From: Candidatus Riflebacteria bacterium HGW-Riflebacteria-1 | GTDB taxonomy: Bacteria; Muiribacteriota; Ozemobacteria; Ozemobacterales; Ozemobacteraceae | Reading direction: 5' to 3' | Length of the DNA stretch: 56,676 nucleotides | NCBI GenBank assembly: GCA_002839445.1 | Contig: PGYB01000006.1 | Span: 128,001-184,676 of the forward strand | Shown here: positions 22,779 to 54,056 of the stretch, in pieces | Position numbering within the stretch: the stretch's first letter is position 1 | Layout: every line of letters starts with the position of its first letter | Made by a program: the position numbers and the translations under genes | Notes under the pieces: generated by a model | Told to the model about the DNA's origin: nothing | Databases searched by the model: none | What the model saw: the letters and a program-made list of their open reading frames with translations, nothing else

Positions 22779-22990
22779 AATTTCTGGCCGAATATCTTTC
22801 AGGGTAACAATTATTCTGCTCGATCGCAGTTAATGCATTATTTCACCTATGCAAAAAATATGCAAACCGATAACAGGCAAATTGCTCTGATAAATTGCCC
22901 GACAGTCTAATGTTCAGCAATTCTCGGTCAAAAATCCACATTGCATATCTTCGTGCTCAGCAAGGTTGTAATCGTAATCGACCTCAAGCC

Positions 22991-23078
22991 GTCATCCTGC
23001 GCGCAGTCGCAGGATCCAGAATGGCAATTAAAGACCTGGATTCTGCGACTTCGCGTTGCTACGCGCATAATGACAGAA
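22991..23078 (+). repeat. REP/MITE-like nested-palindrome element, copy A
   Basis: GTCATCCTGCGCGCAGTCGCAGGATCCAGAATGGCAATTAAAGACCTGGATTCTGCGACTTCGCGTTGCTACGCGCATAATGAC. Inner arms CAGTCGCAGGATCCAG / CTGGATTCTGCGACT and outer arms GTCATCCTGCGCG / CGCGCATAATGAC are reverse complements. Confidence 0.6.
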
Positions 23079-23144
23079 AGAAGGTATGATTTTCGGGAAA
23101 ATCAAAAATTTGCGGGCTGGCGGTATTTTCATTATACTGAGTAA

Positions 23145-24692
23145 ATGCAAAACAGTATTGTCAACTATACGCGCAAGTTATTCATCGGCATGGCTATGGT
23201 CAGCAGCTTTCTGCTGACCGTCTCAGAGCTGCCCGCATGGGACTGCAACGAAACCCACCCCCTGATCAACGCTTACGCTTATGAGCACTTTGTTGCCAGG
23301 TGCAAGGCCGGCCATTTTGCCGACAAGTTTAAAAACATGCAGCTGGACAACCAGACCCAGTTCGCCGGTCTTACCTACAGTAAGGCGGTTAAACTAGAGC
23401 CTTCAACCGAGGGAAAGACAATCAGCGCGGTTGGCGTGTTTTCGCAATGGCTTGAGCGCGGCGGGCGCGATGCCGATATTCCGCAGCTCAGAATGGGCTT
23501 TCGCCATTTTTATGACCCAGTCTATGAGCCTCGTTACCTGACCTGGCTGCGCCGAAAAATTATTACCCCTGATAAAAAGAAATTCAGCAGCGAAAAAGAA
23601 CTTTTCGACTCGTATAATTACAAGGCCGACGACTGGAATCCTAATCTCGAATTCGGCAGTGTTACCCGCAATGTTCGCCTGCTTCCAAAAGTCTTTAGAC
23701 CCGAAATTGACGCGATAACCTGGGCGATGAACCACGAAGAGAACGAGCATTCATGGCTCAACGGCAAACTTGCCTACAAAGCCGCCATGGAAAACGACAG
23801 CAGCGCTTTTGGCAAACTGAATCGCAGTCAGATGTTTGGCAAGGCATTCAGAGCCCTCGGCGAAACCATGCACCTGATGGCTGACATGAGCCAGCCGGCG
23901 CATACCCGCGCTGACAGTCACTCGGCCTATGAACCGATAGAAGAAACGGTTAATGCTAAAATGGTGCGAAAAGTTATGGGTGACACGCACAAAAAGGCAG
24001 ATTTCAAGCCGGTTTCTGAGTATGAGATCGAAGAAGGCCTGGCGCCAGATCAGCTTATGGCTAAGGTCGCGGCGTTTACCAATGCTAATTTTTTCAGCAA
24101 TGACACTATTTTCGATTACAACAAATGGGTTTTCCCGCGCCTCAAAAAACGCCCCTACCCCGCTCCACAGTTGTCTAAGCTTCGCCACGAAGCCGGTATC
24201 TATTACACCTGGTTCGAAAGCGTCGGCTGGGTGCCACTTGCCAAAGAGACAGGCTCGATGTTTTCTAAGGTTCTCAATGATAATGACAAATTTGGCCGCA
24301 AAAACCCGAAGTTCAATGTAATGCCTTATTTTGCGGAAAAGCAGGCACAGGTGCTGATTCCGCTGGCAGTTTATAACTGCGCCGAGCTGATCAGGGCTTT
24401 TATTCCGCGCTTCAGCATGCAGGCCAGCCTGCGCAATGTTTCGGGCACAACTTATGAATTGCAAGGCGAGCTGATTCACCACGCTGGCGACGATCCTGAA
24501 TGGCAGGATATCGGAGCGATAAGATATACTGGCGAAGGTTTCGTAAAGGTAAACAACCAGTGGCAGCGTTGCGAATTTATTGATGGCCAGCTGAAACCGG
24601 CACGTCTCGAACTCAAGCCGGGCGACCAGGTCAAGCTGAGTATTCGCAACGGCGCGGTGATTGTAAGCAGCGAAAGTGTAATCGCCCGCTGA
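23145..24692 (+). CDS. Secreted protein, probable zinc-dependent phospholipase C / S1-P1 nuclease fold
   Basis: A signal peptide ends ...SELPA|WDCNETHPLINAYAYEHF. The mature N-terminal Trp followed by His, and a later HLMADMSQPAH (H-x3-D-x5-H) motif, mirror the W1/H and H118-D122-H128 zinc ligands of Zn-PLC/P1 nuclease. The remaining metal ligands were not mapped. Confidence 0.45.
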   Translation: MQNSIVNYTRKLFIGMAMVSSFLLTVSELPAWDCNETHPLINAYAYEHFVARCKAGHFADKFKNMQLDNQTQFAGLTYSKAVKLEPSTEGKTISAVGVFSQWLERGGRDADIPQLRMGFRHFYDPVYEPRYLTWLRRKIITPDKKKFSSEKELFDSYNYKADDWNPNLEFGSVTRNVRLLPKVFRPEIDAITWAMNHEENEHSWLNGKLAYKAAMENDSSAFGKLNRSQMFGKAFRALGETMHLMADMSQPAHTRADSHSAYEPIEETVNAKMVRKVMGDTHKKADFKPVSEYEIEEGLAPDQLMAKVAAFTNANFFSNDTIFDYNKWVFPRLKKRPYPAPQLSKLRHEAGIYYTWFESVGWVPLAKETGSMFSKVLNDNDKFGRKNPKFNVMPYFAEKQAQVLIPLAVYNCAELIRAFIPRFSMQASLRNVSGTTYELQGELIHHAGDDPEWQDIGAIRYTGEGFVKVNNQWQRCEFIDGQLKPARLELKPGDQVKLSIRNGAVIVSSESVIAR

Positions 24693-24861
24693 TCCCCACC
24701 GGGGCAGCGTTGCTACTATTCACAAAAAATTCGTTTTCGCAGACACCAGGGCGCCTGAAGTGCAGTGAGCCAGATTCGATTACGATTACGATTGCGAGCA
24801 CGAGCTCGAAATGACAGGGCAATACCAAAGGTATTTACTGACAAAATGAGTGGAGTTGGTA

Positions 24862-25692
24862 TTAGAGGCTTTGCAGGCGCTTGTCGATGTAACTGTTTAC
24901 CGAAGCAAAAACGTTTTTAACTTCTGTGCAGTCGGGAAGAAATGCCTGCAGAACATTCAGGTAACCGCGTTCCCTGAGACGCCGCAGGGTTGGCGCGAAA
25001 TTGATATCATACACCCAGCCAGTCTGCAGCAATTTAAAGTCATTCAGGGTTTTGAGGTCTTCGAAGAGCACAGTCTCGCCATTCATGATGCTCGTGTAGA
25101 CTTCTGGCGAAATGCCCGGCGAATCAGGCAGATGCAGCTCAAGCCCGGCGTTGATTTTTCCTGATGTTCTCTGCTGGTAATAGTCGGTTGCGACCCACCA
25201 GATATCAAGCTTGTCGGCATCGCGCAGCAGACGGGCGTGCAAAATGCTTCGCGAGTCAAGGGCGTCAGACAATACCGCCTGGTTGTGAAGAGCAATGCTT
25301 TTGAAAATGAGAATTCGCTCTGATTCGTTGAGACGCAGCAGAATATCTTTGCCGCGCAAAATGCCGACGCCAAAGGCTGCGTGATTGACCGACCGTTTGT
25401 CTGAAAATGTCCGGTAACGCCAGAATTGTTCAAATCTGCCGACATCATGAAACAGAGCAGCAGTCTCGGCAAGCCAGAGATCGGGACCGACAAGCCCGAG
25501 ATCAGTAGCTATTTCGACAGCCGCACGACAGACCCGCTGCGTGTGCTGGTATTTGAGGTCGATGTTCATCTTGACTTCGGGATCGTCAGATACAAAAGTC
25601 TCTACATAAGCATCAAACCAGTCTTTAAAATACTTGAGATCTTCAGGACTAATAGGTCTTGCGGCAGCGTTGCTGCAATCAGTACCGTGCAT
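24862..25692 (-). CDS. HD-domain metal-dependent phosphohydrolase
   Basis: HTQRVCRAAVEIATDLGL...AALFHDVGR (H...HD motif) and a later DADKLD. Confidence 0.8.
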   Translation of the reverse strand: MHGTDCSNAAARPISPEDLKYFKDWFDAYVETFVSDDPEVKMNIDLKYQHTQRVCRAAVEIATDLGLVGPDLWLAETAALFHDVGRFEQFWRYRTFSDKRSVNHAAFGVGILRGKDILLRLNESERILIFKSIALHNQAVLSDALDSRSILHARLLRDADKLDIWWVATDYYQQRTSGKINAGLELHLPDSPGISPEVYTSIMNGETVLFEDLKTLNDFKLLQTGWVYDINFAPTLRRLRERGYLNVLQAFLPDCTEVKNVFASVNSYIDKRLQSL

Positions 25693-25896
25693 ATATTCAC
25701 CTGTCTGTCCTACCCTGAAGTTGGGCGACAGCTAATTCAAATGTGCTTAACAAAATCAATTGTAAGACTTTCTATCGTCATATGCAATGTATTGCTCTAT
25801 AGAAGCAGCAACAATTCATCTGACTATTAGAGGCGACTCGTGCAAGATGCAAATGCGAGTCTACCTTTTTTTATTCAAACCGGTTAAAAGAAACAG

Positions 25897-27330
25897 TTAA
25901 ACCTTGAGTATCTTTAAGATACCGGACCACAGGCCTTGGAGAAATTCGGTTATCTTCGCGATCAGCTGCTCGATCAATTCTACAGCTGCGGCATTATTTT
26001 CTTCGGTGTCACCAGATTCGTCGTTTTCTTCGACCTCGTCGCCTGAATTGTCACTGGTATCGGCTTCTTCGTCTGAGCTGGTGTTTTCGTCTGTATCAAC
26101 GTCTTCATCGGCCTCTTCTTCTTCGACAGTGGCTTCATCGCTCGGATCTTCATTATCGTTATCATCTTTGTCGTCGTCGTTATCTTCGTTTTTGCCATCG
26201 TTCTTTTCATCATTTTTGTCGTCGTTCTTGCTGGCGTCAGAACTATTTTCGGGCTTATCAGGCTTGTCTTTCTTTACCTTGTGCTTGAAAACGCGTTCGT
26301 ATTTTTTGGCGTATTTTCCGGTTTTTGCGTTATAAGTTCGCACCTTTGCCCGGGCAGGCGTAAGGTCGAGCACGCGCATCCAGGCCGAATTCGTTCCAAT
26401 GGCGGGGGTATGTATGACGGTGACTTTGCCGACCTTATTAGCCGGGTTATGGTATTCATTCGATGCTGGCCCGATGTGCAGATGACCGGATACCCAGAGG
26501 AATACCTGCGGGTTGTTTCTGAGAATTTCTCTTATTTTGCCTGCCGGCTGCGCATTAGAATTGTGCGGCCCAAGTTTTCTTTCTTTTACATAACTGCCCT
26601 CTAATGGCGCGTGGCAGAATATAATGGTTGGCACATCGCGGTTTTTCTTGAGAGTCTCTTTAAGAAAATTCAGCGCGCCAGTTGACAGGCTGACCAGCCA
26701 CTTGCCTTTCAGGTCATCGTTTGGCAGAAACACGAGCAGATGACCGCCGACTTTTCGCGAAAAGCGCAGGCTTTTGAGTTTGAGAGCCTTGCGGAAGCGC
26801 TCAAGCTTGGCCTTGCGCTCAGCCGGAGAAGTGCGCAGTTTCAAGTTATTCTTGCCAAAAAAGTCACGGTAAAGTATGTCGTGGTTGCCAGGAACGGCAA
26901 ATATCGGCACTTTGAAGCGGCTGACGAGCTTTATCATCTCTGAGTATTCAGCTGGCGAGCCGATTTTTCGGCAGAGATCGCCGGTTATGGCGACGGCGTA
27001 TATGCCAGGCAATTCGTTAATAGCCTTAACTGCAGTCTGCAGCATTTTCTGTTTGCTGTCCTGAACGTGCAGGTCGGCGATTACCGCGACTTTTGCCGGT
27101 CTGTCGTCGCTGTCGTAAATTACCTTCTTTGCATTGGCGCTGGCGCTGGCGTTGGCAGCATCAGCCGCGCCGCCCTGTTTGAGCTGGAATTTACCCTCGC
27201 TCGCGAACGGACTATCAAATTCAGCGTAGCCTGCGGAACAGCAGATAACGCTCAAAACCAGCAGAACGAGACCTGTCAGTAAGGCTTTGCGGTTATAAGA
27301 CATAGATCGTCTCCTCAATGCTTTTTTCAA
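25897..27330 (-). CDS. Secreted calcineurin-like metallophosphoesterase with ~120-aa acidic low-complexity C-terminal tail
   Basis: Signal peptide. Metallophosphoesterase motifs: GDLHV.., GDL(C), VPGNHD, GHLH. C-terminus DKNDEKNDGKNEDNDDDKDDNDNEDPSDEATVEEEEADEDVD..., then an amphipathic helix. Confidence 0.75.
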   Translation of the reverse strand: MKKALRRRSMSYNRKALLTGLVLLVLSVICCSAGYAEFDSPFASEGKFQLKQGGAADAANASASANAKKVIYDSDDRPAKVAVIADLHVQDSKQKMLQTAVKAINELPGIYAVAITGDLCRKIGSPAEYSEMIKLVSRFKVPIFAVPGNHDILYRDFFGKNNLKLRTSPAERKAKLERFRKALKLKSLRFSRKVGGHLLVFLPNDDLKGKWLVSLSTGALNFLKETLKKNRDVPTIIFCHAPLEGSYVKERKLGPHNSNAQPAGKIREILRNNPQVFLWVSGHLHIGPASNEYHNPANKVGKVTVIHTPAIGTNSAWMRVLDLTPARAKVRTYNAKTGKYAKKYERVFKHKVKKDKPDKPENSSDASKNDDKNDEKNDGKNEDNDDDKDDNDNEDPSDEATVEEEEADEDVDTDENTSSDEEADTSDNSGDEVEENDESGDTEENNAAAVELIEQLIAKITEFLQGLWSGILKILKV

Positions 27331-27395
27331 CTTACTATATTACTCTACAAACACTAAAAAAGTTTCGCTGCAACATTTTTCAGAAAAACCAAGCT

Positions 27396-27478
27396 GTCAT
27401 GCGCGCAGTCGCAGGATCCAGAATGGCAATAAAAACATGTATTCTGCGACTGCGCTTTGCTACGCGCATAATGACAGA
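27396..27478 (+). repeat. REP/MITE-like nested-palindrome element, copy B (inner 3' arm partly deleted)
   Basis: GTCATGCGCGCAGTCGCAGGATCCAGAATGGCAATAAAAACATGTATTCTGCGACTGCGCTTTGCTACGCGCATAATGAC, ~85% identical to copy A. Lies 120 bp upstream of the symporter gene. Confidence 0.6.
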
Positions 27479-27597
27479 GAGAGGGTGCGCGGGCAGCCCG
27501 TTAACATTGCTACAAACAGTGGCTGCAAAACTTTCGAGACATTATTGATGCTACATGGTAAAGTTGGCATCTACATTTTTGGACAGGATACCACATT

Positions 27598-28863
27598 ATG
27601 CAACAGAAAAAATCATTGACCTGGCGCATTCTGACCGGGTTGACGCTCGGGGCAATCACTGGTCTTGCCATGTCGTATTTTCTCATTCCAGCTGGCACTG
27701 CCAATTTATGGATCTCTGGTTTGTTCGACCTCGTCGGCGGCCTGTTTATAAATTCTATACGCATGCTGGTCGTGCCGCTGGTCTTTGTTTCACTGTTCTG
27801 CGGCGTAACCAGTCTCGGCGACATCGCTCGCGTCGGGCGCATCGGCGGTAAGACCCTGGCGTTTTACCTGATAACGACGGCGATAGCAATCAGTCTCGCG
27901 CTTGCTGTGTCGGTTCTGGTTAAGCCCGGTCAGGGGCTGAATCTGGCAGAACTGTCAAAACACGAACCGTCAATGGCAAGCCGGCAGTCGATGTTTAAAA
28001 CGCTGCAGAACATTATTCCATCTAACCCGGTTGCTGCCATGGCCGAGGGAAACATGCTGCAGATAATTTTCGTGGCACTTCTGTCAGGAGTCAGCGCGAC
28101 GCTGGTTGGCGCCCGCGCCCGCCCGGTGATCGACTTCTGCGAATCTGCCAACGCTATTGTCATGAACATGGTGATGCTGCTCATGCAACTCGCACCTTAC
28201 GGCGTATTCGCGCTGATAGCTAAAACTTTTGCTGCGGTCGGATTTGACGCGATGCTGCCATTGCTGAAATATGTGCTGACCGTTCTCGTCGTTCTGCTGC
28301 TGCACATGTGTCTTACCTACATGGGAGCACTCAAATTACTGGGTGGACTGCATCCGTTCAGATTTTTCAAGAACTTTCTGCCGGCGATGAGCGTGGGTTT
28401 TTCTACTGCCAGCAGCAATGGTACGCTGCCGATCTCGATTGAAACCGTCGAAACACGCTGTGGCGTTGCCAACAGTGTCGCAGCTTTTACCATGCCGCTT
28501 GGCGCGACAATAAACATGGACGGCACTGCAATCATGCAGGGTGTCGCAGTAGTTTTCATCGCGCAGGTCTATGGAATAGCCCTGCCACTCGATTCTTTTC
28601 TCATCGTTATACTCACTGCAACCATGGCATCGATAGGAACTGCCGGGGTTCCTGGCGTTGGACTGATCACGCTGTCGATGGTTCTCGAATCGGTCAACCT
28701 GCCGGTAGAAGGTATCGCGCTGATTATCGGCGTCGACCGCCTTCTCGACATGACGCGAACCGTCGTCAACATCACTGGTGACGCGGTTTGCACCATACTG
28801 ATCGCGAAGTCAGAAGGCAAGTTCGACGCTGCAATCTACGACGCGGCCAACGCTGAAGAGTAG
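27598..28863 (+). CDS. Dicarboxylate/amino-acid:cation symporter (DAACS; GltP/GltT/DctA family)
   Basis: Eight-plus TM helices, with family motifs such as ...LFINSIRMLVVPLVFVSL..., ...AFTMPLGATINMDGTA..., ...SIGTAGVPG... Confidence 0.85.
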   Translation: MQQKKSLTWRILTGLTLGAITGLAMSYFLIPAGTANLWISGLFDLVGGLFINSIRMLVVPLVFVSLFCGVTSLGDIARVGRIGGKTLAFYLITTAIAISLALAVSVLVKPGQGLNLAELSKHEPSMASRQSMFKTLQNIIPSNPVAAMAEGNMLQIIFVALLSGVSATLVGARARPVIDFCESANAIVMNMVMLLMQLAPYGVFALIAKTFAAVGFDAMLPLLKYVLTVLVVLLLHMCLTYMGALKLLGGLHPFRFFKNFLPAMSVGFSTASSNGTLPISIETVETRCGVANSVAAFTMPLGATINMDGTAIMQGVAVVFIAQVYGIALPLDSFLIVILTATMASIGTAGVPGVGLITLSMVLESVNLPVEGIALIIGVDRLLDMTRTVVNITGDAVCTILIAKSEGKFDAAIYDAANAEE

Positions 28864-28897
28864 TTACGCCAGCATGGCCTGGTGACGCGAAAAGCGC

Positions 28898-31800
28898 TTA
28901 CTCAGAGTCAAGAACTGAGATTCCCGGGAGGGCGAGCCTTTCGAGGAACTCAAGACTGGCACCACCACCGGTTGAGACATGGGTCATCTTGTCGGCCACC
29001 CCGGCCAGCTTAACTGCCGAAGCAGAATCGCCACCACCGATGATTACGGTTTTGCCTTTTTCGGCCATTTTAGCGAGTTCAAGCGACAATCTGATCGTGC
29101 CCTCAGAGCCTTCTTTTATCTCAAAGGCTCCGATAGGGCCGTTCCAGAGAACGGTCTTAGCGGTTTCGAGAATGCTCAGCGCGTGATTGATAGATTCTTC
29201 ACCAAGGTCGAACGATTCCCAGCCTTCTTTTATGGTTTTCACGTTGCGCTCAAGGTTGCCGACCTTCAGATTGGCAAAATCGAATTTGTCAGTTGTCACA
29301 AAGTCTCGTGGCAGAACGATCTTGTCGCCGTATTTGTCCATCAGCTTTTTGGCGGTCTCGAGCATTGACTCTTCGACCAGCGATTTCTGAACGTCAAACC
29401 CGGTCGCCTTGAGCAAGGTGTAACCGATGCCGCCGCCGACAATCAGCAGATCTATCTTCTGCAGCAATGATTCAATGATGCCGAGCTTGGTCGAAATTTT
29501 TGAACCGCCGGTAATACCGACAAATGGGCGTTTTGGCTCGCCGACCGCAGCGCCAAGATATTTGAGTTCTTTTTCTACGAGCATTCCGGCAAGTTTCATG
29601 CCGACATGCTTTGTTACTCCGGTAATCGAGGCATGACTGCGATGGCATGTGCCGAAAGCATCGTTGACGTAAATGCCGTCAGAGAGGCCTGCCAGGCCGC
29701 GAGCAAAGAACAGGTCGTTCTCTTTTTCGCCGATCGCGTAGCGCAGGTTTTCGATAATGTTGACCCGGCCTTTGACGATATCTTCTTTTTTGATGAGTAC
29801 GCCTGATGAAGCGATGCTCTTTTCGTGAAAGACGAGATCGGCAAAGTGAGCGCGCAGGTATTCGGCCACAGATTTAAGGCTGTATTCGGTGTAGATTTCT
29901 TCGCGCGACTTGCCTTTTTTCTCCTGTTTGTCGGGCTCGCCGAGATGCGAACAAAGAACAGGCGTGGCGCCCTTTTCCATAAGATATCTGATCGTCGGCA
30001 GAGCGGCGTCAATTCTGGTTGCGTCAGTGATTTTGCCCTTTGCCAGCGGGACATTAAAATCAAGTCTGACCAGAACATTTTTTCCGGCAAGAACATCTTT
30101 GCCAACGCTGGTGACGATACGCTTTTTAAAGCCAGTTTCTTTTTCGAGAACGGCAATTTTTTCGTGAATAATGCGATCGACTTCGCGTGCAGCATCAGTC
30201 GGTGAAGTGAGACCTTTTATCGAATCGAGAATATTGTGGGTTCTGATAAAGCTGTTGTAGAGCGGGACACTGCCGCGATACACGTAACCGCCGTTAGCGT
30301 CGAGCGTTATCAGTTCGCCCTCTTTCAACACCGTGTCAGTGGCACCCTTGAAAGTCACGGTTTTCTGCTTGAGATCGATCACCGCAGATGAACAGCCGAC
30401 CACGCATGGTTTGTTGAGAGTGATCGAAGTAATCGCCGCGTGCGAAGTTCGACCCGGGTAAACGGTGATGATGCCATGCGAATTGTTCATTATGTAGAAG
30501 TCGGAAGGCTTGGTATTCTGGGCGAAATAGATGATATTCTCGCGATGCGCCTTGATTTCTTCGAGCTTTTCGAGAGTCAGCACCAGGGTTCCGCAGGCAA
30601 TGCCGTGATTGATCGGCACGCCGGCAATGAGCGGCGGTTTCCATTCGCGAAAACCGTCATCAGCGCGAGGAACCGAAATAAACGCGTTGGTCGCGCACAT
30701 TCTTTCGATGCGCGCTCTGAACTCATCAAGGCTGATAATACCGTTTTTCATCATATCAACGTCGACGACGAGTTTGGCGTAGGTGCTGATGGTCGCGCGT
30801 CTGGTCTGCAGAAGATAGAGCCGGTCGTCTTCTACCGTGAACTCAATATCGAGCTCGTGCTTGAGTTCCTGTTCGAGAATTCGCTTATCCCTTAGCAGTT
30901 CAGCATTGATTTTTTCGGGTATCGTGGCGATGTTGCGGGTTACAATATTACCCATCACGACATCTTCGCCCTGAGTCATTTCGCGATATTCGCCGAACAT
31001 TTCGTCTTCGCCATTGATCGGGTTTCTCGTAAACAGGACGCCGCTCATGCATCTCGCGTTCAGGTTGCCGAACACCATCTGCTGAATGGTTACCGCAGTG
31101 CCGTAGATAACATCAATAGACAGTTCCTTGAGATAGTCTCTTACAATTTGAGACCGGCTCGACGCAAAAACCAGATCAACACTCTTTACCAGCTGTTCAA
31201 ATGGATCATCGAGAAAGCTGGCACCAAGCTCTTTTTTGACAGCCTGCTCGGCCATCTCGATTGACGCTTCGCTGCCGGGGTCTTTTTCCAGCGCGACAAG
31301 AGAATTGATCAAAAACCGGCGATAAATGCTCGACGCGAAGGCATCGCCATGTTTTGCCGCGAGAGTATCGCGAATATCTGCAGTCAGGCCAACATTCAGA
31401 ATTGTGCACATCGAACCGGGCAACGAAATAGTCGTGCCAGAGCGCACCGAAACCAGAAGAGGATTCGTCGGGCAGCCAAGTTTTTTGCCGGTTTTTGCTT
31501 CAAGCTGTTCGAGGTATTTTTTTATTACAGCTCGAAAACCGGCGCGGTCGGAATTTTCGCCGGCCATCTCACGGCAGATCGGCAAGCCAAGAATAAAAGC
31601 CGGGGGAATATTGACCCCGAGACTGCTCATATCAATTATGCCATTACCTTTGCCGCCAAGATAGGGCCGCACGCTGTCAGGCGTCTTAGTCCACGTGGTG
31701 GCGATAAAGTCATCGTAGTTAGAGTTAACCGCCGGCAGGTCGCTGACGCGATACTTGCCGTAAAGGCTGCTCTCAGCGCTTTTGGTGGCGAGCTCACGGT

Positions 31801-33118
31801 TCAAAAACATCACGATTTTTTCAATGAATTCGCTAACTGCGTGAAACTCTGTCGTTCTGATAAAATTGTTGAAAAAGCGGTCTTTGATCGGCGACAGAGC
31901 CGAAGTCGGCACTTTGTAGGCCTCAAGAACATTGTTGAGCATCTGGCTGAGCCTGAGAAAAATGTTCGTGCGCATGAACTGCTGCAGCTCAATCGCAATA
32001 TTCTCAAACAGGCGTTTGGTTTTGAGAATATCGACGGTTTCCATCGCGTAGATCTCGTTGAGTTCTTTGATGAACTTGTCGCTCTTTTCGGCGAGAATGC
32101 CTTTGATGCTGAGCAGCACGATCAACTCTTTCACCAGGATCATGCAATCCTTGATGTTGCCAAAAGTCACTGTCTCATAATGGTTGTTGGTCAGGTCGTT
32201 TGTGAAGATAAAAACCAGTCGGCCAATGTCGAGATCAAGGTTAAGAAAATCAAACATCTCGATACGCTTTTCTGAATATGACTTTTTGAGCAACATCTTA
32301 AAGCTCGCCAGCCTCTTAACGCAGTCTACGAGGTTGTCGGTATTCTTAATATGCGCTGCGTCACTTATTTTAAGAAATGTCTGCATTTCTTTTTTAAGAA
32401 AACATTTCTCAAACAGATCAAGATGGCTTTCGAGATTATTTTTGACCGCGGTTATATCACCCTTTTCGTAATCCCAGAGGTAGGAAAGCTTTTCTTCAAG
32501 CTCTTCTGCCAGTTCGATAAATTTTCTATCCTCAGATTTCGCGTCAAATCTGCTGGCCAGAGCCATGTAACCGGCTTTAGCGATCGGTTCCGAATTATTG
32601 TTTTTGATCAGCTGCAGGTAAGGCCTGATATATTTTTCTAGAATTCTGGGTGACAGCTTTCTGTGCACCTCTTTGCGCAGATCGCCGGCGAAAGAAAGCA
32701 TCGGGTCGTTGCCGTTGCGGCTTTCTTCAAAATACTCGGCGGCACTGCGAATATCGCCTATCAGGTCACCGCCGCCGCTTCTTATTGGCAGCTTCTTGAG
32801 CACTTCCCGGAAATAATAAATATATTCATTAGAGGGCTCAACCATCGTGTTGAGTGTTTGTTTTGTCTCGTCAAGAACTCTTTGATAAATGGTGTCGATG
32901 TTCTCTTTTAGATCACGGCTGTCGTGTATTTTTTCTTCTTTGTCGAGCAGTCTGATGTTAACGAGAACCGCAGTAATCATTGCCAGTTTCTTTTCCATTG
33001 CGGTTTCTTCGCGCAGAGCGACAATTTTGCCGATTATCTGATCCCAGGTGTTAAGCGGAACCATGCCCTGATCAAACGTGGAAATGCCTGAAAAATCTTC
33101 AATCATACGCCCCTCCAT
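28898..33118 (-). CDS. Multidomain fusion: N-terminal ~450-aa helical domain of unknown function, PPDK-type ATP-grasp nucleotide-binding domain, PEP-utilising phosphohistidine swivel domain, and a complete phosphoglycerate kinase
   Basis: A single uninterrupted 1406-aa ORF. PPDK_N-like segments (YLGGKGNGIIDMSSLGVNIPPAFILG, PLLVSVRSGTTISLPGSMCTILNVGL). A swivel-domain phosphohistidine motif (YPGRTSHAAITSITLNKPCVVGC). A full set of PGK motifs (VLVRLDFNVPL, CSHLGEP, WNGPIGAFE, IIGGGDSASAV, STGGGASLEFLE). No PEP/pyruvate TIM-barrel domain is present. The first ~1.4 kb of the gene (N-terminal domain) is visibly more AT-rich than the rest. Confidence 0.8.
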   Translation of the reverse strand: MEGRMIEDFSGISTFDQGMVPLNTWDQIIGKIVALREETAMEKKLAMITAVLVNIRLLDKEEKIHDSRDLKENIDTIYQRVLDETKQTLNTMVEPSNEYIYYFREVLKKLPIRSGGGDLIGDIRSAAEYFEESRNGNDPMLSFAGDLRKEVHRKLSPRILEKYIRPYLQLIKNNNSEPIAKAGYMALASRFDAKSEDRKFIELAEELEEKLSYLWDYEKGDITAVKNNLESHLDLFEKCFLKKEMQTFLKISDAAHIKNTDNLVDCVKRLASFKMLLKKSYSEKRIEMFDFLNLDLDIGRLVFIFTNDLTNNHYETVTFGNIKDCMILVKELIVLLSIKGILAEKSDKFIKELNEIYAMETVDILKTKRLFENIAIELQQFMRTNIFLRLSQMLNNVLEAYKVPTSALSPIKDRFFNNFIRTTEFHAVSEFIEKIVMFLNRELATKSAESSLYGKYRVSDLPAVNSNYDDFIATTWTKTPDSVRPYLGGKGNGIIDMSSLGVNIPPAFILGLPICREMAGENSDRAGFRAVIKKYLEQLEAKTGKKLGCPTNPLLVSVRSGTTISLPGSMCTILNVGLTADIRDTLAAKHGDAFASSIYRRFLINSLVALEKDPGSEASIEMAEQAVKKELGASFLDDPFEQLVKSVDLVFASSRSQIVRDYLKELSIDVIYGTAVTIQQMVFGNLNARCMSGVLFTRNPINGEDEMFGEYREMTQGEDVVMGNIVTRNIATIPEKINAELLRDKRILEQELKHELDIEFTVEDDRLYLLQTRRATISTYAKLVVDVDMMKNGIISLDEFRARIERMCATNAFISVPRADDGFREWKPPLIAGVPINHGIACGTLVLTLEKLEEIKAHRENIIYFAQNTKPSDFYIMNNSHGIITVYPGRTSHAAITSITLNKPCVVGCSSAVIDLKQKTVTFKGATDTVLKEGELITLDANGGYVYRGSVPLYNSFIRTHNILDSIKGLTSPTDAAREVDRIIHEKIAVLEKETGFKKRIVTSVGKDVLAGKNVLVRLDFNVPLAKGKITDATRIDAALPTIRYLMEKGATPVLCSHLGEPDKQEKKGKSREEIYTEYSLKSVAEYLRAHFADLVFHEKSIASSGVLIKKEDIVKGRVNIIENLRYAIGEKENDLFFARGLAGLSDGIYVNDAFGTCHRSHASITGVTKHVGMKLAGMLVEKELKYLGAAVGEPKRPFVGITGGSKISTKLGIIESLLQKIDLLIVGGGIGYTLLKATGFDVQKSLVEESMLETAKKLMDKYGDKIVLPRDFVTTDKFDFANLKVGNLERNVKTIKEGWESFDLGEESINHALSILETAKTVLWNGPIGAFEIKEGSEGTIRLSLELAKMAEKGKTVIIGGGDSASAVKLAGVADKMTHVSTGGGASLEFLERLALPGISVLDSE

Positions 33119-33298
33119 CTTTAATCTATACTAACTCAATAACACTTTTTTGGGGCACTGTCCAATTTTCGCAGCGTTTTCGACATGGCAAAATTGCCAG
33201 CGCAGAAAGGCGCGCGAAATTACAATCATGATTTTTCGTCATGAAGCAAATCGCTATGTGTCAGAGTGAAAGAGAATAGGTGGCGGACAAATCTCGTG

Positions 33299-35656
33299 CT
33301 ATTGAGCTGCTCCAGGAATTACCATGAAGCGGCCACGCAATGCCCGCACATCCTTTATGAGAAGCGGTCGAGGAGCATAACGAAACTCTTTGAAAGCGCG
33401 CATCTGGTCATCAGCTGACCTGCCGGTCGCCGCGTTTCCTGGCGGTGTGCAGCCAGAAATCCTGATCCCGGAAGAACTGAGCTCTATCAGCTGAATATCG
33501 CTGCCACGATTCATAAACGGTGTACAGCTTGCGACAGAGGTCATTGTCGGCGCACCAATATGATTAACTGCTGCGAACTCCATCGGCTGAGCAGCAAACT
33601 CTGGCAAATTCCTCCCATCAGTCGCGTTCTCGGCAAATACCTTCTGGTAAATCCTGGTGACATAATCATTGGCATCGCGTTCGCCGAGATAATCATGGCG
33701 ACTATGGCGCAACAATACCTTGGCCAGCAGGGCAGACTGAGTCCAGGTTGCGTCAGAGGCTGACATCCAGGCGAACTTGTCGAGCTTCTCACCCAGCAGA
33801 TCATTATAGAGGGCGTTAAAAAATGCATTAAACAGGCCGGCAGCCTTGTTATCATAAAAACCATTTTCGTCACGGTCGACGCGCAGATTATCCCAGCCGC
33901 GCAGCAGCTCAAATGCCTCCTTTTCAGAGGAAGACAGCTGATCAATACTTATGAGTGAAACCAGAAAATCCTTGAAAAAATAAGCTCTCTGATCGGTAAA
34001 CGCGAGGTCTTTATCAAGTTGCACCAGATAATCAAGCGACCATTTGTCACGATTGGCGGCAATATGATCGGCAAGAAACCTGCTGCGCTGGTCAGCAGCC
34101 CAGTTTGTCTGCAGATCGCCGTTGCGGTAACCTTTTACCGGCGGGCAGTTCCAGTTAGCGTAGAAACCGGTTGCCGGGTTACTGCCTGCAAGACGTTTAT
34201 CAGGCGAAATAAAATCTGTTGGTCGGCTGACTGGAAGTCGATCGTCACCAAAACTTCGCCGGCTTTTGCCGAGCCCGCAATGCACGAACGCGATATTGCC
34301 AGAGCAGTCAGCACCAAACCAGTTGATCGACAGGGCGTTTCGGTCTGATGCTGCAAGCCAGCTCTCCAGGTTATCGGCAAACGTCGATGCAAACCAGGCA
34401 GTGTATGATTCGACGACTTTTCCGCTCCAGGCGCGGTGCTTAACATAGTAGGTGTTGCCCTCTATCGCGACAACCGGGCCAAGGTCTGTCTCAGTCACTT
34501 CGCGCTCAACTGGCTTCGGCAAGCCCTTCACAGCAATTTTCTCTATTCTTCGGCTGATTCGGGCAGTGCAGTTTGTGCCCGTAAGCAGATCTGGAGAGTC
34601 TTCATTCAGCTTGAGATTGAGCAGATCAACCAGATTGCCCACCCCGGCTGTGGAGGTAAAGGCAATATGGCGGTTGGCAGCAAACATTATGAATACATAG
34701 CCAACCGGAGTTGTGCCGACAATATCAAACTCCGGCGTGTGCAGCCCAATACCGTAAACAGCGGAGGGCTTGAAATATCCCATCTGTGGCCCGCCAAAAA
34801 GCAGAGCCTTTTTTTCGCCGTTCTGTTGCAGGGTTAAGGCTGCTCCGTAGCTGCCTGATTTATCAGGAACACCGAGAGCCTTGAGCAGTCGGTTACGTTT
34901 CTGGTTCTGCAGAGTCGGCGAATTGGTCGGAGCGGTAAAACTGCCGGCGGGATCGGTTGTCGGAACAAACCTGAAACCGGGTTTGAAAAAGGGCATGTCG
35001 CCGAGTGTCGTGTAAATATCCGGGTCTTCATAAAAAACAACATCTTCGAATATCTCAGAAGCTGTTCTGGCGCCATACTTCCTGACCAGACTGTTGAGAA
35101 GATGCTGATTGTCGAGTTCCATGGCAAAATCGTTGTAACGTGCTGCCATGGTACCAGCAAAAATATCGAGAATCTGTAACTGCGAAAATGCTGCAGGCGC
35201 TATTCCTGCCTTGGCAAATGCCGGGTCAATAAGAAACTTTCCGGCCTGAACATCGGCTATGGCTCTGTTTATACCGTCAGTAAAAGCGTTAAGTGCGGTT
35301 GCAAAATCTTCCGGGCAGTTTTTCAGGCCTTCAGAAAGTTCTGTCGGCGATACCCGGTCGCGCCGGGCGAGAAAATCGGTCTCAATGTAGTCTGGCCCGA
35401 AAATTTCAGCTAGAGTGCCTTCGGTAGAACGCCGCAAAACCTCAAGCTGAAACATGCGATCTCTGCCGAGGCAATAACCATAGCCCATAAAGGCGCCATA
35501 GGTAGTGCTGGCTACAACATGCGGCATACCAGCTTCGTCATGCCAGATTTTGATATAACCAGACTCTGTTGACAAGTTTTCGCGGCCGGAGCAATTTGCC
35601 GACACGCTCACAAGCATCAGCGCAATCAGCAATGTATGTAGTATGTAGTTCTTCAT
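33299..35656 (-). CDS. Penicillin-acylase-family Ntn hydrolase (S45; AHL/penicillin/aculeacin acylase-like), secreted
   Basis: Signal peptide. N-terminus IWHDEAGMPHVVASTTYGAFMGYGYCLGRDRMFQLEVLRRSTEGTLAEIFG is typical of the alpha-subunit. A candidate beta-subunit N-terminal nucleophile lies in ..GVPDKSG|SYGAAL... Confidence 0.8.
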   Translation of the reverse strand: MKNYILHTLLIALMLVSVSANCSGRENLSTESGYIKIWHDEAGMPHVVASTTYGAFMGYGYCLGRDRMFQLEVLRRSTEGTLAEIFGPDYIETDFLARRDRVSPTELSEGLKNCPEDFATALNAFTDGINRAIADVQAGKFLIDPAFAKAGIAPAAFSQLQILDIFAGTMAARYNDFAMELDNQHLLNSLVRKYGARTASEIFEDVVFYEDPDIYTTLGDMPFFKPGFRFVPTTDPAGSFTAPTNSPTLQNQKRNRLLKALGVPDKSGSYGAALTLQQNGEKKALLFGGPQMGYFKPSAVYGIGLHTPEFDIVGTTPVGYVFIMFAANRHIAFTSTAGVGNLVDLLNLKLNEDSPDLLTGTNCTARISRRIEKIAVKGLPKPVEREVTETDLGPVVAIEGNTYYVKHRAWSGKVVESYTAWFASTFADNLESWLAASDRNALSINWFGADCSGNIAFVHCGLGKSRRSFGDDRLPVSRPTDFISPDKRLAGSNPATGFYANWNCPPVKGYRNGDLQTNWAADQRSRFLADHIAANRDKWSLDYLVQLDKDLAFTDQRAYFFKDFLVSLISIDQLSSSEKEAFELLRGWDNLRVDRDENGFYDNKAAGLFNAFFNALYNDLLGEKLDKFAWMSASDATWTQSALLAKVLLRHSRHDYLGERDANDYVTRIYQKVFAENATDGRNLPEFAAQPMEFAAVNHIGAPTMTSVASCTPFMNRGSDIQLIELSSSGIRISGCTPPGNAATGRSADDQMRAFKEFRYAPRPLLIKDVRALRGRFMVIPGAAQ

Positions 35657-35782
35657 CTCGACCTCCGCAGCCCATTAGAATAGCTTAATGTGTTGAATTG
35701 CTTTACAGATAGAGATTGTAAACACAAACAGCTAAAATTTCCAGTATTAATCTTGAAACGAATAAGCGAGTCGACATCGACC

Positions 35783-35868
35783 GTCATCCTGCACGCAGTC
35801 GCAGGATCCAGGATGGCAATAAAGGCCATGGATTCTGCGACTTCGCGTTGTTCGCACAGAATGACGAG
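35783..35868 (+). repeat. REP/MITE-like nested-palindrome element, copy C
   Basis: GTCATCCTGCACGCAGTCGCAGGATCCAGGATGGCAATAAAGGCCATGGATTCTGCGACTTCGCGTTGTTCGCACAGAATGAC. Lies in the 532-bp divergent intergenic region upstream of the pfa-ole operon. Confidence 0.6.
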
Positions 35869-36188: not shown

Positions 36189-39100
36189 ATGAAGCGCAAA
36201 GAAGCAAAATTTGAACCACTGGCGATAGTCGGAATGAGTTGTCTTTTCCCAAAGGCTCAGAGCCTTGAAGATTACTGGGCCAACATCAAAGAAAAAGTTG
36301 ACGCAATAAGCGAAGTACCGGCGACACATTGGAATTCCGCCGACTACCTCGACAGCGACAAAAAGCGTGCCGATCATGTGTACACTTCTACCGGTGGCTT
36401 TCTTGATCCCGTTGATTTTGTGCCCGGCGATTGGGGAATCGCGCCTTCTGACCTCGACTCAATCGACACTTCGCAACTGCTTAGTCTCGTAGTCGCGCAG
36501 GGCGCTCTCAGTGACGCAGGTTACGGCGCTGCTCGCGATTTTAATCGCGACAACGTCAGTGTTATTCTTGGCCTTACCGGCACTCTTGAGATGGTTGTTC
36601 CGCTTGGCGCGCGTCTCGGGCACCCCATCTGGCGCCGGGCCATGCAACATGCCGGTATTCCGGCAGATATCACTGAAGAAGTTATTACCAACATAGGCAA
36701 AGCCTACGTTGGCTGGCAGGAAAACTCTTTCCCTGGCCTCCTTGGCAACGTTGCTGCCGGACGCATCGCGAATCGCCTTAACCTGGGCGGAACCAACTGC
36801 GTCGTCGATGCTGCCTGCGGCAGTTCGCTGGGCGCCATCAATCATGCCGCTCTCGAACTCTGGACTGGCAAAACCGACATGGTTATAACCGGCGGCGTAG
36901 ACACCTTCAATGATATTTTCATGTATATGTGTTTCTGCAAAACACCGGCCCTGTCACCCACCGGCCACGCCCGTCCTTTCAGTGTTGACAATGATGGCAC
37001 TATTCTTGGCGAGGGAATCGGCATGCTGGTGCTTAAGCGCCTGTCAGATGCTGAGCGAGATGGTGATCGTGTTTACGCCTGTATAAACGCGGTCGGCAGC
37101 TCAAGCGATGGCAAAGGCAAGGCTATTTACGCCCCCAGCCCCGTTGGTCAGAAAAAAGCCCTGATGCGCGCCTACGAAATGGCGGCGATAACGCCGCGCG
37201 ACATCAGCCTTATTGAAGCGCACGGCACCGGCACCAACGCCGGTGACGAAGTAGAAACCACGGCACTGAAAGAGCTCTATGGCATCTCTGAAAATGGTCG
37301 ACCATGGTGCGCCCTTGGCTCAGTCAAGTCACAGATTGGCCATACCAAGGCAGCAGCCGGCTCAGCCGGTATTATAAAAGCCGCTCTTGCTCTTTACCAT
37401 AAGGTTATTCCGCCGACTATCAAAATTTCGCAGCCAGCCAACGGCGTGCGCGGCGAAGAAGTTCCATTTTACATGCCCGATAAAATCAGACCCTGGATTA
37501 CCGATGATGCAAGGCCACGCATAGCTGCTGTCAGCGCCCTCGGATTTGGCGGCAGCAACTTTCACGTAGTCGTATCTGAATACAAGTCAGAGAAGACTGT
37601 TGACGACTGGAAGCGCAGCGTAGAACTGGTTACCATTTCTGGCAAAACTCCGGCTGAGATCGAAAATCGTCTGGCAAGCCTGACCAGTTGCAAAAATGCT
37701 TACCAGCTGCGCAAATACGCCGCTGAATCACGCCGCGACTTTAATGCCGACGATAATTGTCGACTGACTTTCGTAGTCGAAGCAATTCACGATATTGAAA
37801 AGATCGTTACCGATATTACCGGTAATCTGTCCAAGAAAGACGGTTCTTTTAATCTGCCAAATGGCGTGTATTATGCCACTGGCGAACAGAAAGCACCGGT
37901 CGGTGTAATTTTTCCCGGTCAGGGAGCGCAATATCCCGGAATGAGTCTCGACCTCGTCTGCAGCAATCAACAGGCTTTTGCCGCCTTTATCGAAGCTGAC
38001 CAGGCAATTTCGTCTCTCGACGCGCAAAACAATCACCTTGTTGATTACGTGTATCCACGCCCGACCTACGATTCCGAAAAAGACAAACTCAACGATGAAA
38101 AACTGCGGGCAACCGACATCGCGCAGCCGGCAATAGGCGCAATAGCTCTTGGCCAGTATCGCGCGCTTGAAGCGTTCGGCCTGCACGCCGATGGCTTTGC
38201 CGGCCATTCATACGGCGAGCTGGTAAGCCTCTGTGCTGCCGGCGCATTTGATAACGCAACTCTGGCAAAACTCTCGCGCAAACGCGGGCAGTTGATGGCT
38301 CAGGGCAGCGGCGACCGCGGCGGCATGATTGCCGTTGCCGCAGATCGCACCTTTGTTAAAGAACTGATCGCCGAAGAAAATCTCGATCTCGTGGTAGCCA
38401 ATCACAACTCACCACAACAGGTTGTGCTTTCCGGCAAAACCTCGGAAATCGAACGCTCACGCGAAGTTTTTAAAGCGCGCAAACTGCGTGCTACCGTGCT
38501 TAATGTCGCCGGCGCCTTTCACAGCAAATTTGTTTCTGACGCTGCCGAACCGTTCCACGCGTTTCTGGCCAGCGAAAAAATCAGCAAACCCTCGGTGCCG
38601 GTATACGCGAATACAACCGCTACCCCCTACCCTTCAGATACTGAAGAGATTAAAAAGCTTCTCGGCTTTCAACTTGCCAACCAGGTGCGTTTCGTCGAAA
38701 TCATCGAAAAAATGTACGCCGACGGAATAAGAACCTTTATTGAAGCCGGGCCCGGCGGAAAAATCACGGGTCTGATCAAGTCTATTCTTGAGGGCCGCGA
38801 ATGCAACATTATCGCGGTCGATTCATCTGCCGGCAAACGTTCTGGCCTCAATGATCTGGCCAGAGTGCTCGCCCAGCTCAGCGCGATCGGCTATAAACTG
38901 CAGGTCACCCGCTGGCAGGACGGCGAAAACTGGCTGGCACAGCAGCCCCAGAACGTCAAACCGAAACTGACTTTCCCGGTCTGCGGCGCCAATTACAAAT
39001 CGCCGGCACATGTTAAATTTTGCGAGGAACTCGCGAAACCGGCGACAGCAAAGCTGATCACCAGCAAAACACCGCCGGCACCGGCAAGCCAGCCGGCCGC

Positions 39101-50386: not shown

Positions 50387-50419
50387 GTTTGCTATCCTGC
50401 CCAAACCACAACGAATATT

Positions 50420-51460
50420 ATGAAATTTACCCGCGTATTTCTTGAAGCCATCGGCTACGAACTGCCTCAGCATGTTGTTACTTCGTCCTGGATCGAAGAA
50501 CAGCTTGCTCCGCTGTACCGCAAATTGCATCTACAGCCTGGCCAGCTCGAAGCGCTTACCGGAATACGCGAGCGCCGCTGGTGGGGGCACAACCATGTTA
50601 ACGCGGTCGAAGCCGCCAAGGCAGCCAAGAAGGCCCTGGCCGAAACTGATATACCGGTCGAAGATATCGGCGCTGTCGTCTATGGCGGCGTCTGTCGCGA
50701 CAACTACGAACCTGCTACCGCCTGCCACGTTGCCGCTGAGCTGAAAGTGCGTGCCGAGACCGCGATCTGCGATGTCTCGAACGCCTGTCTTGGCGCCATG
50801 AGTGGCATTATCGATATTGCTAACCGCATCGAACTTGGGCAGATCAAGGCTGGTATCGTTGTTGCCTGCGAAACTGCCCGCGATATTACGCAAATCATGA
50901 TTCAGCGCATGCTCGAAGAAGGTTCAATGGAATTTTTTAAACAGGCGCTCGCCACCATGACCGGCGGCTCTGGCGCCTGCGGCATTGTGCTCAGCGATGG
51001 TTCATACGGCGAAAGAGGCCCACGGCTTGCTGGCGGTGTAATTCTCGGCGCACCCGAACATCATCGCATGTGCCGCTGGGGAGCTGATCAGCGTATTCCG
51101 GCCCGCGCCCCGCAGATGATGGAAACCAACGCCATTGGTATGCTGCGCCACGGCGGAGACCTTATTCGCCGTGTTGGTGAAGCTTTCTGGCGCGAACTGA
51201 ACTGGACCAGCGACCAGCTTGACAAGATAATTTCGCATCAGGTGGCCAGCGCTAACCGCGACGCCATACTCAATAACCTCGGCCTGACGCTCGAAAAAGA
51301 TTTTTCGACCTTTCAGTTTCTTGGCAACATGGGAACCGTTTCTCTGCCGGTTACCGCAGCGATCGCCATGGAACGCGGCATCCTCGAAAAGAACCAGAAA
51401 GTCGGATTTGTCGGCATCGGAAGCGGTCTTAACAGCATGATGCTCGGATGGGAATGGTAA
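50420..51460 (+). CDS. oleA: OleA (FabH-like thiolase catalysing head-to-head Claisen condensation)
   Basis: KAS-III/thiolase fold with catalytic Cys in ICDVSNACLGAMSGIIDIAN. Sits 34 nt downstream of pfaC and is followed by oleBCD. Confidence 0.85.
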   Translation: MKFTRVFLEAIGYELPQHVVTSSWIEEQLAPLYRKLHLQPGQLEALTGIRERRWWGHNHVNAVEAAKAAKKALAETDIPVEDIGAVVYGGVCRDNYEPATACHVAAELKVRAETAICDVSNACLGAMSGIIDIANRIELGQIKAGIVVACETARDITQIMIQRMLEEGSMEFFKQALATMTGGSGACGIVLSDGSYGERGPRLAGGVILGAPEHHRMCRWGADQRIPARAPQMMETNAIGMLRHGGDLIRRVGEAFWRELNWTSDQLDKIISHQVASANRDAILNNLGLTLEKDFSTFQFLGNMGTVSLPVTAAIAMERGILEKNQKVGFVGIGSGLNSMMLGWEW

Positions 51461-51461
51461 T

Positions 51462-52355: not shown

Positions 52356-52372
52356 ACCCGGGAGCACATACC

Positions 52373-54043: not shown

Positions 54044-54056
54044 CAGGAGAGAATCG

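Follow-up and report, generated by a model that had tools for sequence, protein, structure and literature searches.

Three palindromic repeats in a Candidatus Riflebacteria contig as probable head-head dimers of CGTC-tagged REPs

What are the three similar palindromes that stand ahead of functionally unrelated genes in the genome of Candidatus Riflebacteria bacterium HGW-Riflebacteria-1? We addressed this question in a stretch of 56,676 nt from contig PGYB01000006.1 (assembly GCA_002839445.1, positions 128,001 to 184,676 of the forward strand), referred to here as the window; coordinates are those of the window unless a sampled locus (L number) is named. An initial annotation, made from the letters alone, had described three copies of an ~85-bp element on one strand with 80–90% identity. 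We recovered all three on that strand with boundaries within 1–3 nt of those first given, and the identity range was about right: over the element, copies 1 and 2 are 88.6% identical, copies 1 and 3 are 84.1% identical and copies 2 and 3 are 78.2% identical.

We consider it likely that the copies are head-head dimers of CGTC-tagged repetitive extragenic palindromes (REPs), belonging to a non-autonomous, self-propagating repeat that is regenerated by an enzyme acting in trans. The elements are non-coding, dispersed, multicopy and chromosomal in many bacterial lineages, and have no fixed gene partner; the class of small repeats to which they belong is probably selfish DNA. Their architecture fits that of the CGTC-tagged REPs surveyed by Di Nocera, De Gregorio and Rocco (2013, BMC Genomics 14:522; PMC3733652; hereafter “the survey”), in agreement with the initial annotation, which had proposed a dispersed palindrome of REP or bacterial interspersed mosaic element (BIME) type.

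Architecture of the unit and the dimer

Each copy joins two short palindromic units that are inverted relative to each other, with their tags outside. The dimer reads (C/T)GTC-ATCCTGCG-cgcagt-CGCAGGAT-CCA, a spacer, and TGG-ATTCTGCG-loop-CGCAGAAT-GAC(R), and the generic unit starts with (C/T)GTC, pairs its 8-bp stem ATYCTGCG across a loop with CGCAGRAT, and closes with a CCA tail. The nested palindrome has four arms, all of them occurrences of a single 8-mer, ATYCTGCG, with two per orientation. In the window, the tags of copies 1–3 are CGTC, TGTC and CGTC. The 5' units have a 6-nt loop and the C:G form of a variable third stem pair, and the 3' units have a 15–16-nt loop and the T:A form; because the first unit is of the C:G form and the second of the T:A form, the window copies are heterodimers. 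At least one unit of every window copy carries a stem mismatch. A 26-nt core had exactly three exact matches in the window and none in 100 dinucleotide shuffles, and a fuzzy scan allowing up to 2 mismatches per 12–13-mer found no further complete copy in the window.

The initial annotation had drawn each copy as a single long hairpin with an outer stem of 13 bp and a nested inner stem. All three copies do fold in this way; the + strand gives z values from -4.0 to -5.2, and the - strand folds about as well. The outer stem, on the other hand, proved imperfect (11/13 in copies 1 and 2, with a shortened arm in copy 2), and the inner stem contains one G-T pair. The peptide AVAGSRMAIK, reported as common to the three sites, is legible in all three copies as a reading of GCAGTCGCAGGATCCAG(A/G)ATGGCAAT(T/A)AA(A/G); the short open reading frames (ORFs) that carry it are spurious.

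To describe the family we counted loci among the matches listed in a genome scan, whose pattern consisted of the two inner arms and which took one genome per species, and in a metagenome scan, in which the variable stem position was left free (R/Y). A generic unit scan of the sampled loci gave 170 units, tagged CGTC (95/170), TGTC (54/170), GGTC (13/170) or AGTC (8/170). Among 75 copies, GTCAT was preceded by C in 45 and by T in 22; in a second set of 112, it was preceded by C in 53 and by T in 48. The CCA tail was present in 134/170 units, and 71 of 76 dimers, with 77 of 112 in the second set, had the facing tails CCA...TGG on either side of the spacer; beyond the tails, the spacers of the 76 copies showed no pairing. 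Stem ATCCTGCG occurred in 65/170 units and ATTCTGCG in 61/170. Loops were 6 nt long in 73 units, 7 nt in 13, 15–18 nt in 65 (16 nt in 43) and 4–5 nt in 4 (n = 170). Within dimers the stems lay 22–36 nt apart, and the spacer between the inverted units was short and differed between lineages. Tags were outside in all sampled dimers, the arrangement of the inner arms having been demanded by the search pattern.

Outer arms, tag and tail were near-invariant in the genome-scan matches although they were absent from the search pattern, and across phyla the primary sequence is strongly kept as well as the structure. The positions adjoining the element ends tend to be a pyrimidine on the 5' side and a purine on the 3' side, with 38 pairings against 30 expected; farther out, flank pairing was not above expectation. 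In an Alcanivorax metagenome-assembled genome (MAG; locus L021) the element forms a tandem array with a 106-bp period.

These sequences can adopt two alternative folds, the long hairpin or two side-by-side hairpins. Among the matches listed in the metagenome scan, 75 dimers were C:G/C:G, 33 were C:G/T:A and 17 were T:A/T:A, and the state of an outer arm tracked the inner arm of its own unit almost without exception. When 51 distinct short-loop dimers were aligned, 99% of 816 cells were paired in the two-unit structure, and the variable pair inside the units was CG 42 / UA 9 and CG 32 / UA 19, with none broken. Read as a long hairpin, the same positions held 10 C-A mismatches plus 10 G-U pairs; in 22/51 sequences its loop-loop pair was broken as well. 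Because the variable pair is compensated unit by unit and the long hairpin is broken in mixed dimers, we take the unit hairpin to be the conserved module and dimers to be combinations of units; for selection on pairing, this is modest evidence. The covariation suggested as a check on the long nested hairpin was thus seen in the two-unit structure and not in the hairpin itself, which could not be upheld as the conserved structure.

Distribution, turnover and gene context

The genome scan gave at least 81 loci in many taxa, and the metagenome scan gave at least 120 further loci. Among the matches listed, 9–11 separate loci each were found in Ruaniaceae KH17, Riflebacteria HGW-2, R. amylolyticum, a Coriobacteriia MAG and the Alcanivorax MAG; also among them were Oscillospiraceae, Propionibacteriaceae, Vitreoscilla, Burkholderiales, Sterolibacterium, Pseudomonadales, a Spirochaetota MAG and Leucobacter zeae. 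The same family is multicopy in Riflebacteria, Actinomycetota, Coriobacteriia, Bacillota, Proteobacteria and a Spirochaetota MAG. The initial annotation had set a dispersed family against a set of only three copies, and with about ten loci in each of five genomes the former holds. A local duplication or assembly artefact confined to the window might have been suggested by the three copies first noticed, which lie within 13 kb on one strand. That idea is next to impossible: it is refuted by the genome and metagenome scans, in which unrelated contigs and taxa hold over 200 other copies, and the contig region carrying the window copies recurs in independent assemblies, with unique flanking sequence at all three. 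Short-read assemblies terminate inside copy 2.

A BLAST search with the full-length consensus found no match in plasmid and phage collections, and a scan of IMG/VR gave one match only; the element is therefore not plasmid- or phage-borne. Across the whole window Rfam gave no match at gathering thresholds. When the threshold was relaxed to E≤10 for copy 1, only miRNA-precursor hairpins appeared, and these were dismissed as chance matches. Three loci of a Microbacterium MAG (L009, L027, L044) carry the motif GTCGCAGGAT / ATTCTGCGAC in several close direct and inverted copies with no GTCAT outer arms; arranged unlike the dimer, these matches may be another element.

We compared the window principally with GCA_003446455.1, whose flanking proteins are 96–98% identical to those of the window. 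At the site of copy 1, this relative has only GTCATCCTGCGAGCAGAATGAC, which is 62 nt shorter, between near-identical flanks; the difference is most simply read as a deletion between the short direct repeats CGCGCAG / CGCGCAT. Copy 2 is present with the inner arm of its 5' unit decayed, at 79% identity inside the element versus 91% outside. Copy 3 is absent: between identical flanks, ~140 nt of unrelated sequence stand in place of a block of ~230 nt that includes the element. Two further relatives, R. amylolyticum among them, have no copy 3, and where the window has copy 2 they carry other repeats. Downstream of copy 3, the promoter-proximal stretch ahead of pfaA is kept in relatives that lack this copy. 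No clean empty-site junction was found in the relatives for any of the three copies, and no difference was a simple insertion. Individual copies are thus short-lived and decay faster than their flanks, and the family consensus is near-invariant. The window belongs to a 185-kb metagenome contig. For its SDF symporter, beside copy 2, identity is 96% with a protein from a Candidatus Riflebacteria MAG, 93% with that of Riflebacteria GWC2_50_8 and 84% with that of Rifleibacterium amylolyticum.

A second palindromic family, GTCATTGCGAGCGAAGCGAAGCAATC...CTCGCAATGAC, has GTCAT/ATGAC ends and another stem (L089 3080-3180, L091 ~9725-9830). It sits at the orthologous site upstream of the SDF symporter in R. 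amylolyticum-type relatives.

The initial annotation had placed the copies 60–320 bp upstream of + strand genes. The distances stand, with start codons at 67, 120 and 321 nt; all three copies lie in divergent intergenic regions, and each is therefore upstream of a - strand gene too. The label “PLC-like” for the first + strand gene could not be confirmed, the 515-aa ORF at 23145-24692 (+) having zero Pfam, NCBIfam or PDB matches. Over 76 copies of the family, the context assigned by crude gene calls was convergent in 16, co-directional in 11 of the same and 11 of the opposite orientation, divergent in 8, apparently intragenic in 13 and at a contig edge in 17; by the same calls, 46/59 classifiable copies were intergenic. 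Divergent sites, as at all three window copies, are the least common type of context, and the family copies have no orientation bias towards genes.

A direct-repeat test on 185–187 copies found target-site duplications in 0/185 at k = 3, 4, 6, 7 and 8 and in 1/185 at k = 5. All-against-all clustering of ORFs in the loci revealed no recurrent neighbour protein, the clusters being ABC ATPases, histidine kinases and spurious high-GC ORFs, and no full-length insertion sequence (IS) or transposase was found beside any sampled copy. A phmmer search of 9,668 ORFs in 1.58 Mb around ~200 copies, using unverified IS200 TnpA and Escherichia coli REP-associated tyrosine transposase (RAYT) sequences as queries and covering the loci, which are part of each genome, gave no IS200/RAYT-like match at E≤10. 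Promoter and terminator counts were near those of shuffled sequence; the elements were not picked up as terminators and had no U-tract. At one locus (L047 4218-4315) a dimer lies inside a seemingly continuous duplicated ABC/ECF-type ATPase ORF, with the peptide ...AARSRSAQNDKK... Possibly the REP is intragenic and in frame, a situation reported for CGTC repeats; alternatively, the crude ORF call may have fused two neighbouring genes.

Relation to known repeats and competing explanations

The survey divides CGTC-tagged REPs into families CGTC-1 to CGTC-4, within a superfamily that includes Neisseria dRS3 and Rickettsia RPE-4 and RPE-6 (PMC3733652). They are defined there by a terminal CGTC, often TGTC, with TGTC/CCTC tolerated, by a stem of 8–9 bp that almost always opens with complementary A-T residues, and by a 3-nt tail of approximately CCA and a loop of 4–5 nt. 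Most are “HH” dimers with tags outside, spacers of 20–100 bp and frequent heterodimers, and they occur in five phyla, some families having deviant loops. The element described here shares the tag, an 8-bp stem with A-T then T-A first, and the CCA tail; like the published repeats it forms head-head dimers, including heterodimers, and is dispersed and mostly intergenic in several phyla. The published repeats have no associated transposase, and, consistent with this, none was found in the sampled loci around ~200 copies of the element. Its hosts among Riflebacteria, Actinomycetota including Coriobacteriia, and Bacillota lie outside the five phyla listed for CGTC repeats. The survey also suggests that heterodimers shield sequences from hairpin-directed deletion (PMC3733652). 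Heterodimers, the window copies included, do form a less perfect long palindrome, and hairpin-type deletions do occur, since copy 1 collapsed in GCA_003446455.1.

The stem ATYCTGCG was not found in the text or supplements of the survey, its consensus Figure 2 not being covered, and the translated stem (VILR..., ...AQND) is not among the intragenic examples in the supplement. The intragenic CGTC-1 peptide SFLRKQES of R. conorii may be back-translated to a CCTGC/GCAGG core like that of the element, an ambiguous likeness. Alphaproteobacterial CGTC-3 repeats give VIPGLDPGIH / VIAGLDPAIH inside genes (PMC3733652, supplement), and the element has in common with them the frame GTC ATC ... GGA TCC A, the head GTCATC and the ending GATCCA, the window reading being VILRAVAGS; in contrast, CGTC-3 has a 9-bp GC-rich stem, a 5-nt loop and another stem sequence. 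By these comparisons we place the element in the CGTC superfamily as a new member, and possibly as a new family. We found no later literature that uses the CGTC REP terminology, two later papers that cite the survey naming CGTC in their references only, and literature matches to the element's own sequence strings were unrelated primers.

The element resembles E. coli BIMEs in that units alternate in orientation with defined inter-unit motifs and can form tandem arrays (L021). We take those BIMEs to be enterobacterial, of another tag superfamily (GTAG-3), and bound by known host proteins. Several other identities were tried and dropped. Integron attC core sites have the form R''/R' RYYYAAC ... 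GTTRRRY; the element ends in GTCAT ... ATGAC, and neither a cassette array nor an integrase lies in the window. Copies 1 and 2 contain CGCGCATAATG, which resembles the XerC arm of dif; since the consensus of the family is CGCGCAGAATGAC, this reading was abandoned. Identification as a CRISPR, a ribozyme or a group II intron was likewise dropped on sequence grounds.

Among the explanations that compete with a CGTC-tagged REP, the nearest in design is a GTAG-tagged REP doublet (REPIN; Bertels and Rainey 2011, as cited by PMC3733652 and other papers) mobilised by a single-copy domesticated Y1 transposase. RAYT (Y1 HUH) enzymes cleave and join GTAG-tagged REP hairpins in single-stranded DNA without target duplication (PMC3733652). 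Our element has the same overall design of two inverted REPs forming a long imperfect hairpin, is multicopy and intergenic, shows no target duplication and presumably has a single-stranded DNA hairpin as substrate, and a RAYT could lie elsewhere since only part of each genome was sampled. We nevertheless hold a REPIN to be very unlikely: the tag is CGTC/TGTC instead of GT[AG]G, the head being (C/T)GTCAT in nearly all copies, the unit sequence is common to several phyla whereas REPIN units are lineage-specific, no Y1/RAYT-like ORF was found in the sampled loci with the unverified queries, and the survey reports CGTC repeats flanking tyrosine transposase genes in no species surveyed (PMC3733652). 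The initial annotation had also raised a miniature inverted-repeat transposable element (MITE), in the classical sense of a deleted derivative of a DDE-transposase IS that is mobilised through its terminal inverted repeats. A small, dispersed, multicopy element whose termini are 13-nt inverted repeats (GTCATCCTGCGCG / CGCGCAGAATGAC) would suit this, but it is highly improbable; the reading is unsupported because target-site duplications are lacking over 185–187 copies. Nor would a fixed pair of terminal repeats be expected to assort as single units, homodimers and heterodimers, or to keep termini identical across phyla with the spacer alone varying, and no sampled copy has a full-length IS or transposase beside it.

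The remaining possibilities assign the element a function. A host-beneficial structure kept by selection (a protein binding site, a stabiliser of mRNA 3' ends, or a barrier to transcription or supercoiling) could account for the strong conservation of primary sequence across phyla and for the excess of convergent over divergent sites (16 vs 8), which has been reported for REPs at mRNA 3' ends (PMC3733652). We find it unlikely, given that close relatives differ by the loss of single copies and that such copies decay more quickly than the sequence around them, that no U-tract is present and the terminator scan passes over the elements, and that abundance is very uneven between species in the survey (PMC3733652). 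This possibility is compatible with a propagating CGTC-tagged REP, of which single copies could be exapted. Structured RNA leaders, that is, riboswitch- or attenuator-like elements acting in cis on the downstream + strand genes, were a further suggestion of the initial annotation. In its favour are the one orientation of the three window copies, 67–321 nt upstream of + strand genes, and their stable folding with two alternative folds. We consider it barely credible. The reading lacks support because there is no strand bias over 76 copies (11 same, 11 opposite; convergent 16 > divergent 8) and the sites are not kept even in the 96–98% identical relative. In addition, the downstream genes are unrelated, the - strand folds as well, the conserved pfaA promoter-proximal region excludes copy 3, Rfam has no match and tandem arrays exist (L021).

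We therefore return to a CGTC-tagged REP propagated in trans. We infer mobility because the copies are short-lived and indifferent to orientation and gene and because their consensus stays the same from phylum to phylum. A sequence-specific enzyme acting in trans would generate new copies from intact units; it would recognise the tagged hairpin as single-stranded DNA, on the model of the RAYT/IS200-type HUH handling of GTAG REPs. The window copies would then be partly decayed passengers in divergent intergenic regions, and any effect on flanking genes would be incidental. According to the survey, the abundance of CGTC REPs is very uneven between species, from which its authors argue against a general housekeeping role; they consider either that a dedicated enzyme was lost or that several transposases act on the repeats (PMC3733652).

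A number of points weigh against this explanation. No transposition was seen, the difference at copy 1 being an internal deletion and that at copy 3 a block replacement. The loops of the element, 6 nt or ~16 nt, depart from the published 4–5 nt. Both collection scans demanded exact inner-arm matches in giving their at least 81 and at least 120 loci, which in part builds in the conservation seen there; only outer arms, tags and tails had freedom to vary. The compensation within units shows two states only, each of which could have arisen once and been inherited with its module, so that it is weak evidence for selection on pairing or structure. Most host assignments come from MAGs, the record titles of Ruaniaceae KH17 and Leucobacter zeae CC-MF41 being without a MAG label, and the gene contexts depend on crude ORF calls. 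The sampled loci yielded no mobilising enzyme, nor is one known to us from the literature on CGTC REPs, and the mechanism is therefore argued by analogy.

With considerable doubt, we suggest that the family is still being copied by an unrecognised trans-acting enzyme common to all host phyla, which could be a housekeeping protein that processes single-stranded DNA instead of a transposase. If so, the C:G and T:A unit variants, together with hexamer tracts (CGTNNT)n that run in phase with the units (Table 1), would offer a tractable entry to what mobilises CGTC REPs. A unit hairpin that is the conserved module sharpens the question of which enzyme recognises it. Reading the element as a CGTC-tagged REP would extend these repeats to Candidatus Riflebacteria, Actinomycetota and Bacillota, with one stem sequence across phyla. 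For annotation, the hairpins would be treated as selfish or neutral repeats and not as regulators of the polyunsaturated fatty acid (PUFA)/olefin synthase, the symporter or the gene of unknown function. Such repeats break short-read assemblies and mark fast-changing intergenic regions.

Features of the window and minor observations

Table 1. Positions of the repeat copies, their units and CGTC-like neighbours
Feature	Position	Strand	Description	Flanking genes
Copy 1	22990..23075	+	complete head-head dimer (sequence reading, unit scan, family architecture)	Exo_endo_phos (-) / unknown 515 aa (+)
Copy 1, 5' unit			tag CGTC 22990-22993; stem ATCCTGCG 22994-23001; loop CGCAGT 23002-23007; stem CGCAGGAT 23008-23015; tail CCA 23016-23018; then spacer 23019-23036	
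Copy 1, 3' unit (inverted)			tail TGG 23037-23039; stem ATTCTGCG 23040-23047; 16-nt loop 23048-23063; stem CGCATAAT 23064-23071 (one mismatch); GAC 23072-23074; then A	
Copy 2	27395..27476	+	dimer; 5' unit damaged (TGTCA--TGCGCGCAGTCGCAGGATCCA), outer arm short by 2-3 nt	Metallophos (-) / SDF symporter (+)
Copy 2, 3' unit	27441-27475		16-nt loop; tail altered to TGT	
Copy 3	35782..35866	+	dimer	penicillin amidase (-) / pfaA-like (+)
Copy 3, 5' unit	35783-35807		one stem mismatch (ATCCTGCA/CGCAGGAT)	
Copy 3, 3' unit	35832-35865		15-nt loop, one mismatch	
Lone CGTC-like unit	24770..24815	-	TGTC ATTTCGAG ctcgtg CTCGCAAT; unit itself 24791-24815, other stem	
(CGTNNT)n tracts	24770-24815 (-), 22968-22985 in the window; L059 160-185; L073 6195-6232 (-); L077 14-45, 198-216, 289-305			

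Besides the three copies, the window carries one lone CGTC-like unit, at 24791-24815 (-), which is not a copy of the element reported here and runs in phase into a hexamer tract of the (TCGTAA)n type. This tract follows the unit in the convergent spacer 24693-24861 and is absent in the 96% relative. Hexamer tracts (CGTNNT)n, for example CGTAAT CGTAAT CGTGCT CGTCTT CGTTCT, also adjoin the CGTCAT head on its 5' side, in the same phase, in many Riflebacteria- and Spirochaetota-type dimers.

A Riflebacteria subfamily of the dimer has a 12-nt insertion, GAGCGAAGCGCA, in the 5' unit (L028, L037, L041, L050, L056, L060, L068, L076, L082). The dimer with this insertion forms part of a longer repeat that is itself conserved, ...GACTTTTTTGTT[dimer]AnTnATTTTGACCGAGAATTGCT, an arrangement that suggests a larger composite element.

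Downstream of copy 3, the region 36189-55079 holds a PUFA-synthase-like pair and, immediately after it, genes resembling oleA, oleB, oleC and oleD (thiolase, alpha/beta hydrolase, AMP-ligase and 3-beta-HSD-type reductase). The first protein of the pair (2313 aa) has KS, AT, four ACP, KR and DH domains, and the second (2418 aa) has two KS and four FabA domains. This region looks like a polyunsaturated-olefin gene cluster conserved in related Riflebacteria. A 1406-aa ORF at 28898-33118 (-) fuses a pyruvate-phosphate-dikinase-type N-terminal domain and a PEP-utiliser mobile domain to a complete phosphoglycerate kinase, a fusion kept in relatives (1402–1406 aa). Near the start of the window, a DUF3106 protein at 3588-5099 (+) contains ~19 tandem 48-nt repeats at 3912-4835, of 16 aa each and PGQQPGFKPQHR-like. 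Finally, a direct repeat of ~150 nt with 77–81% identity occurs twice, 5.25 kb apart (1017-1129/6273-6385 and 976-1014/6230-6268), one copy lying near an HNH_2 endonuclease gene (6803-7561, -).

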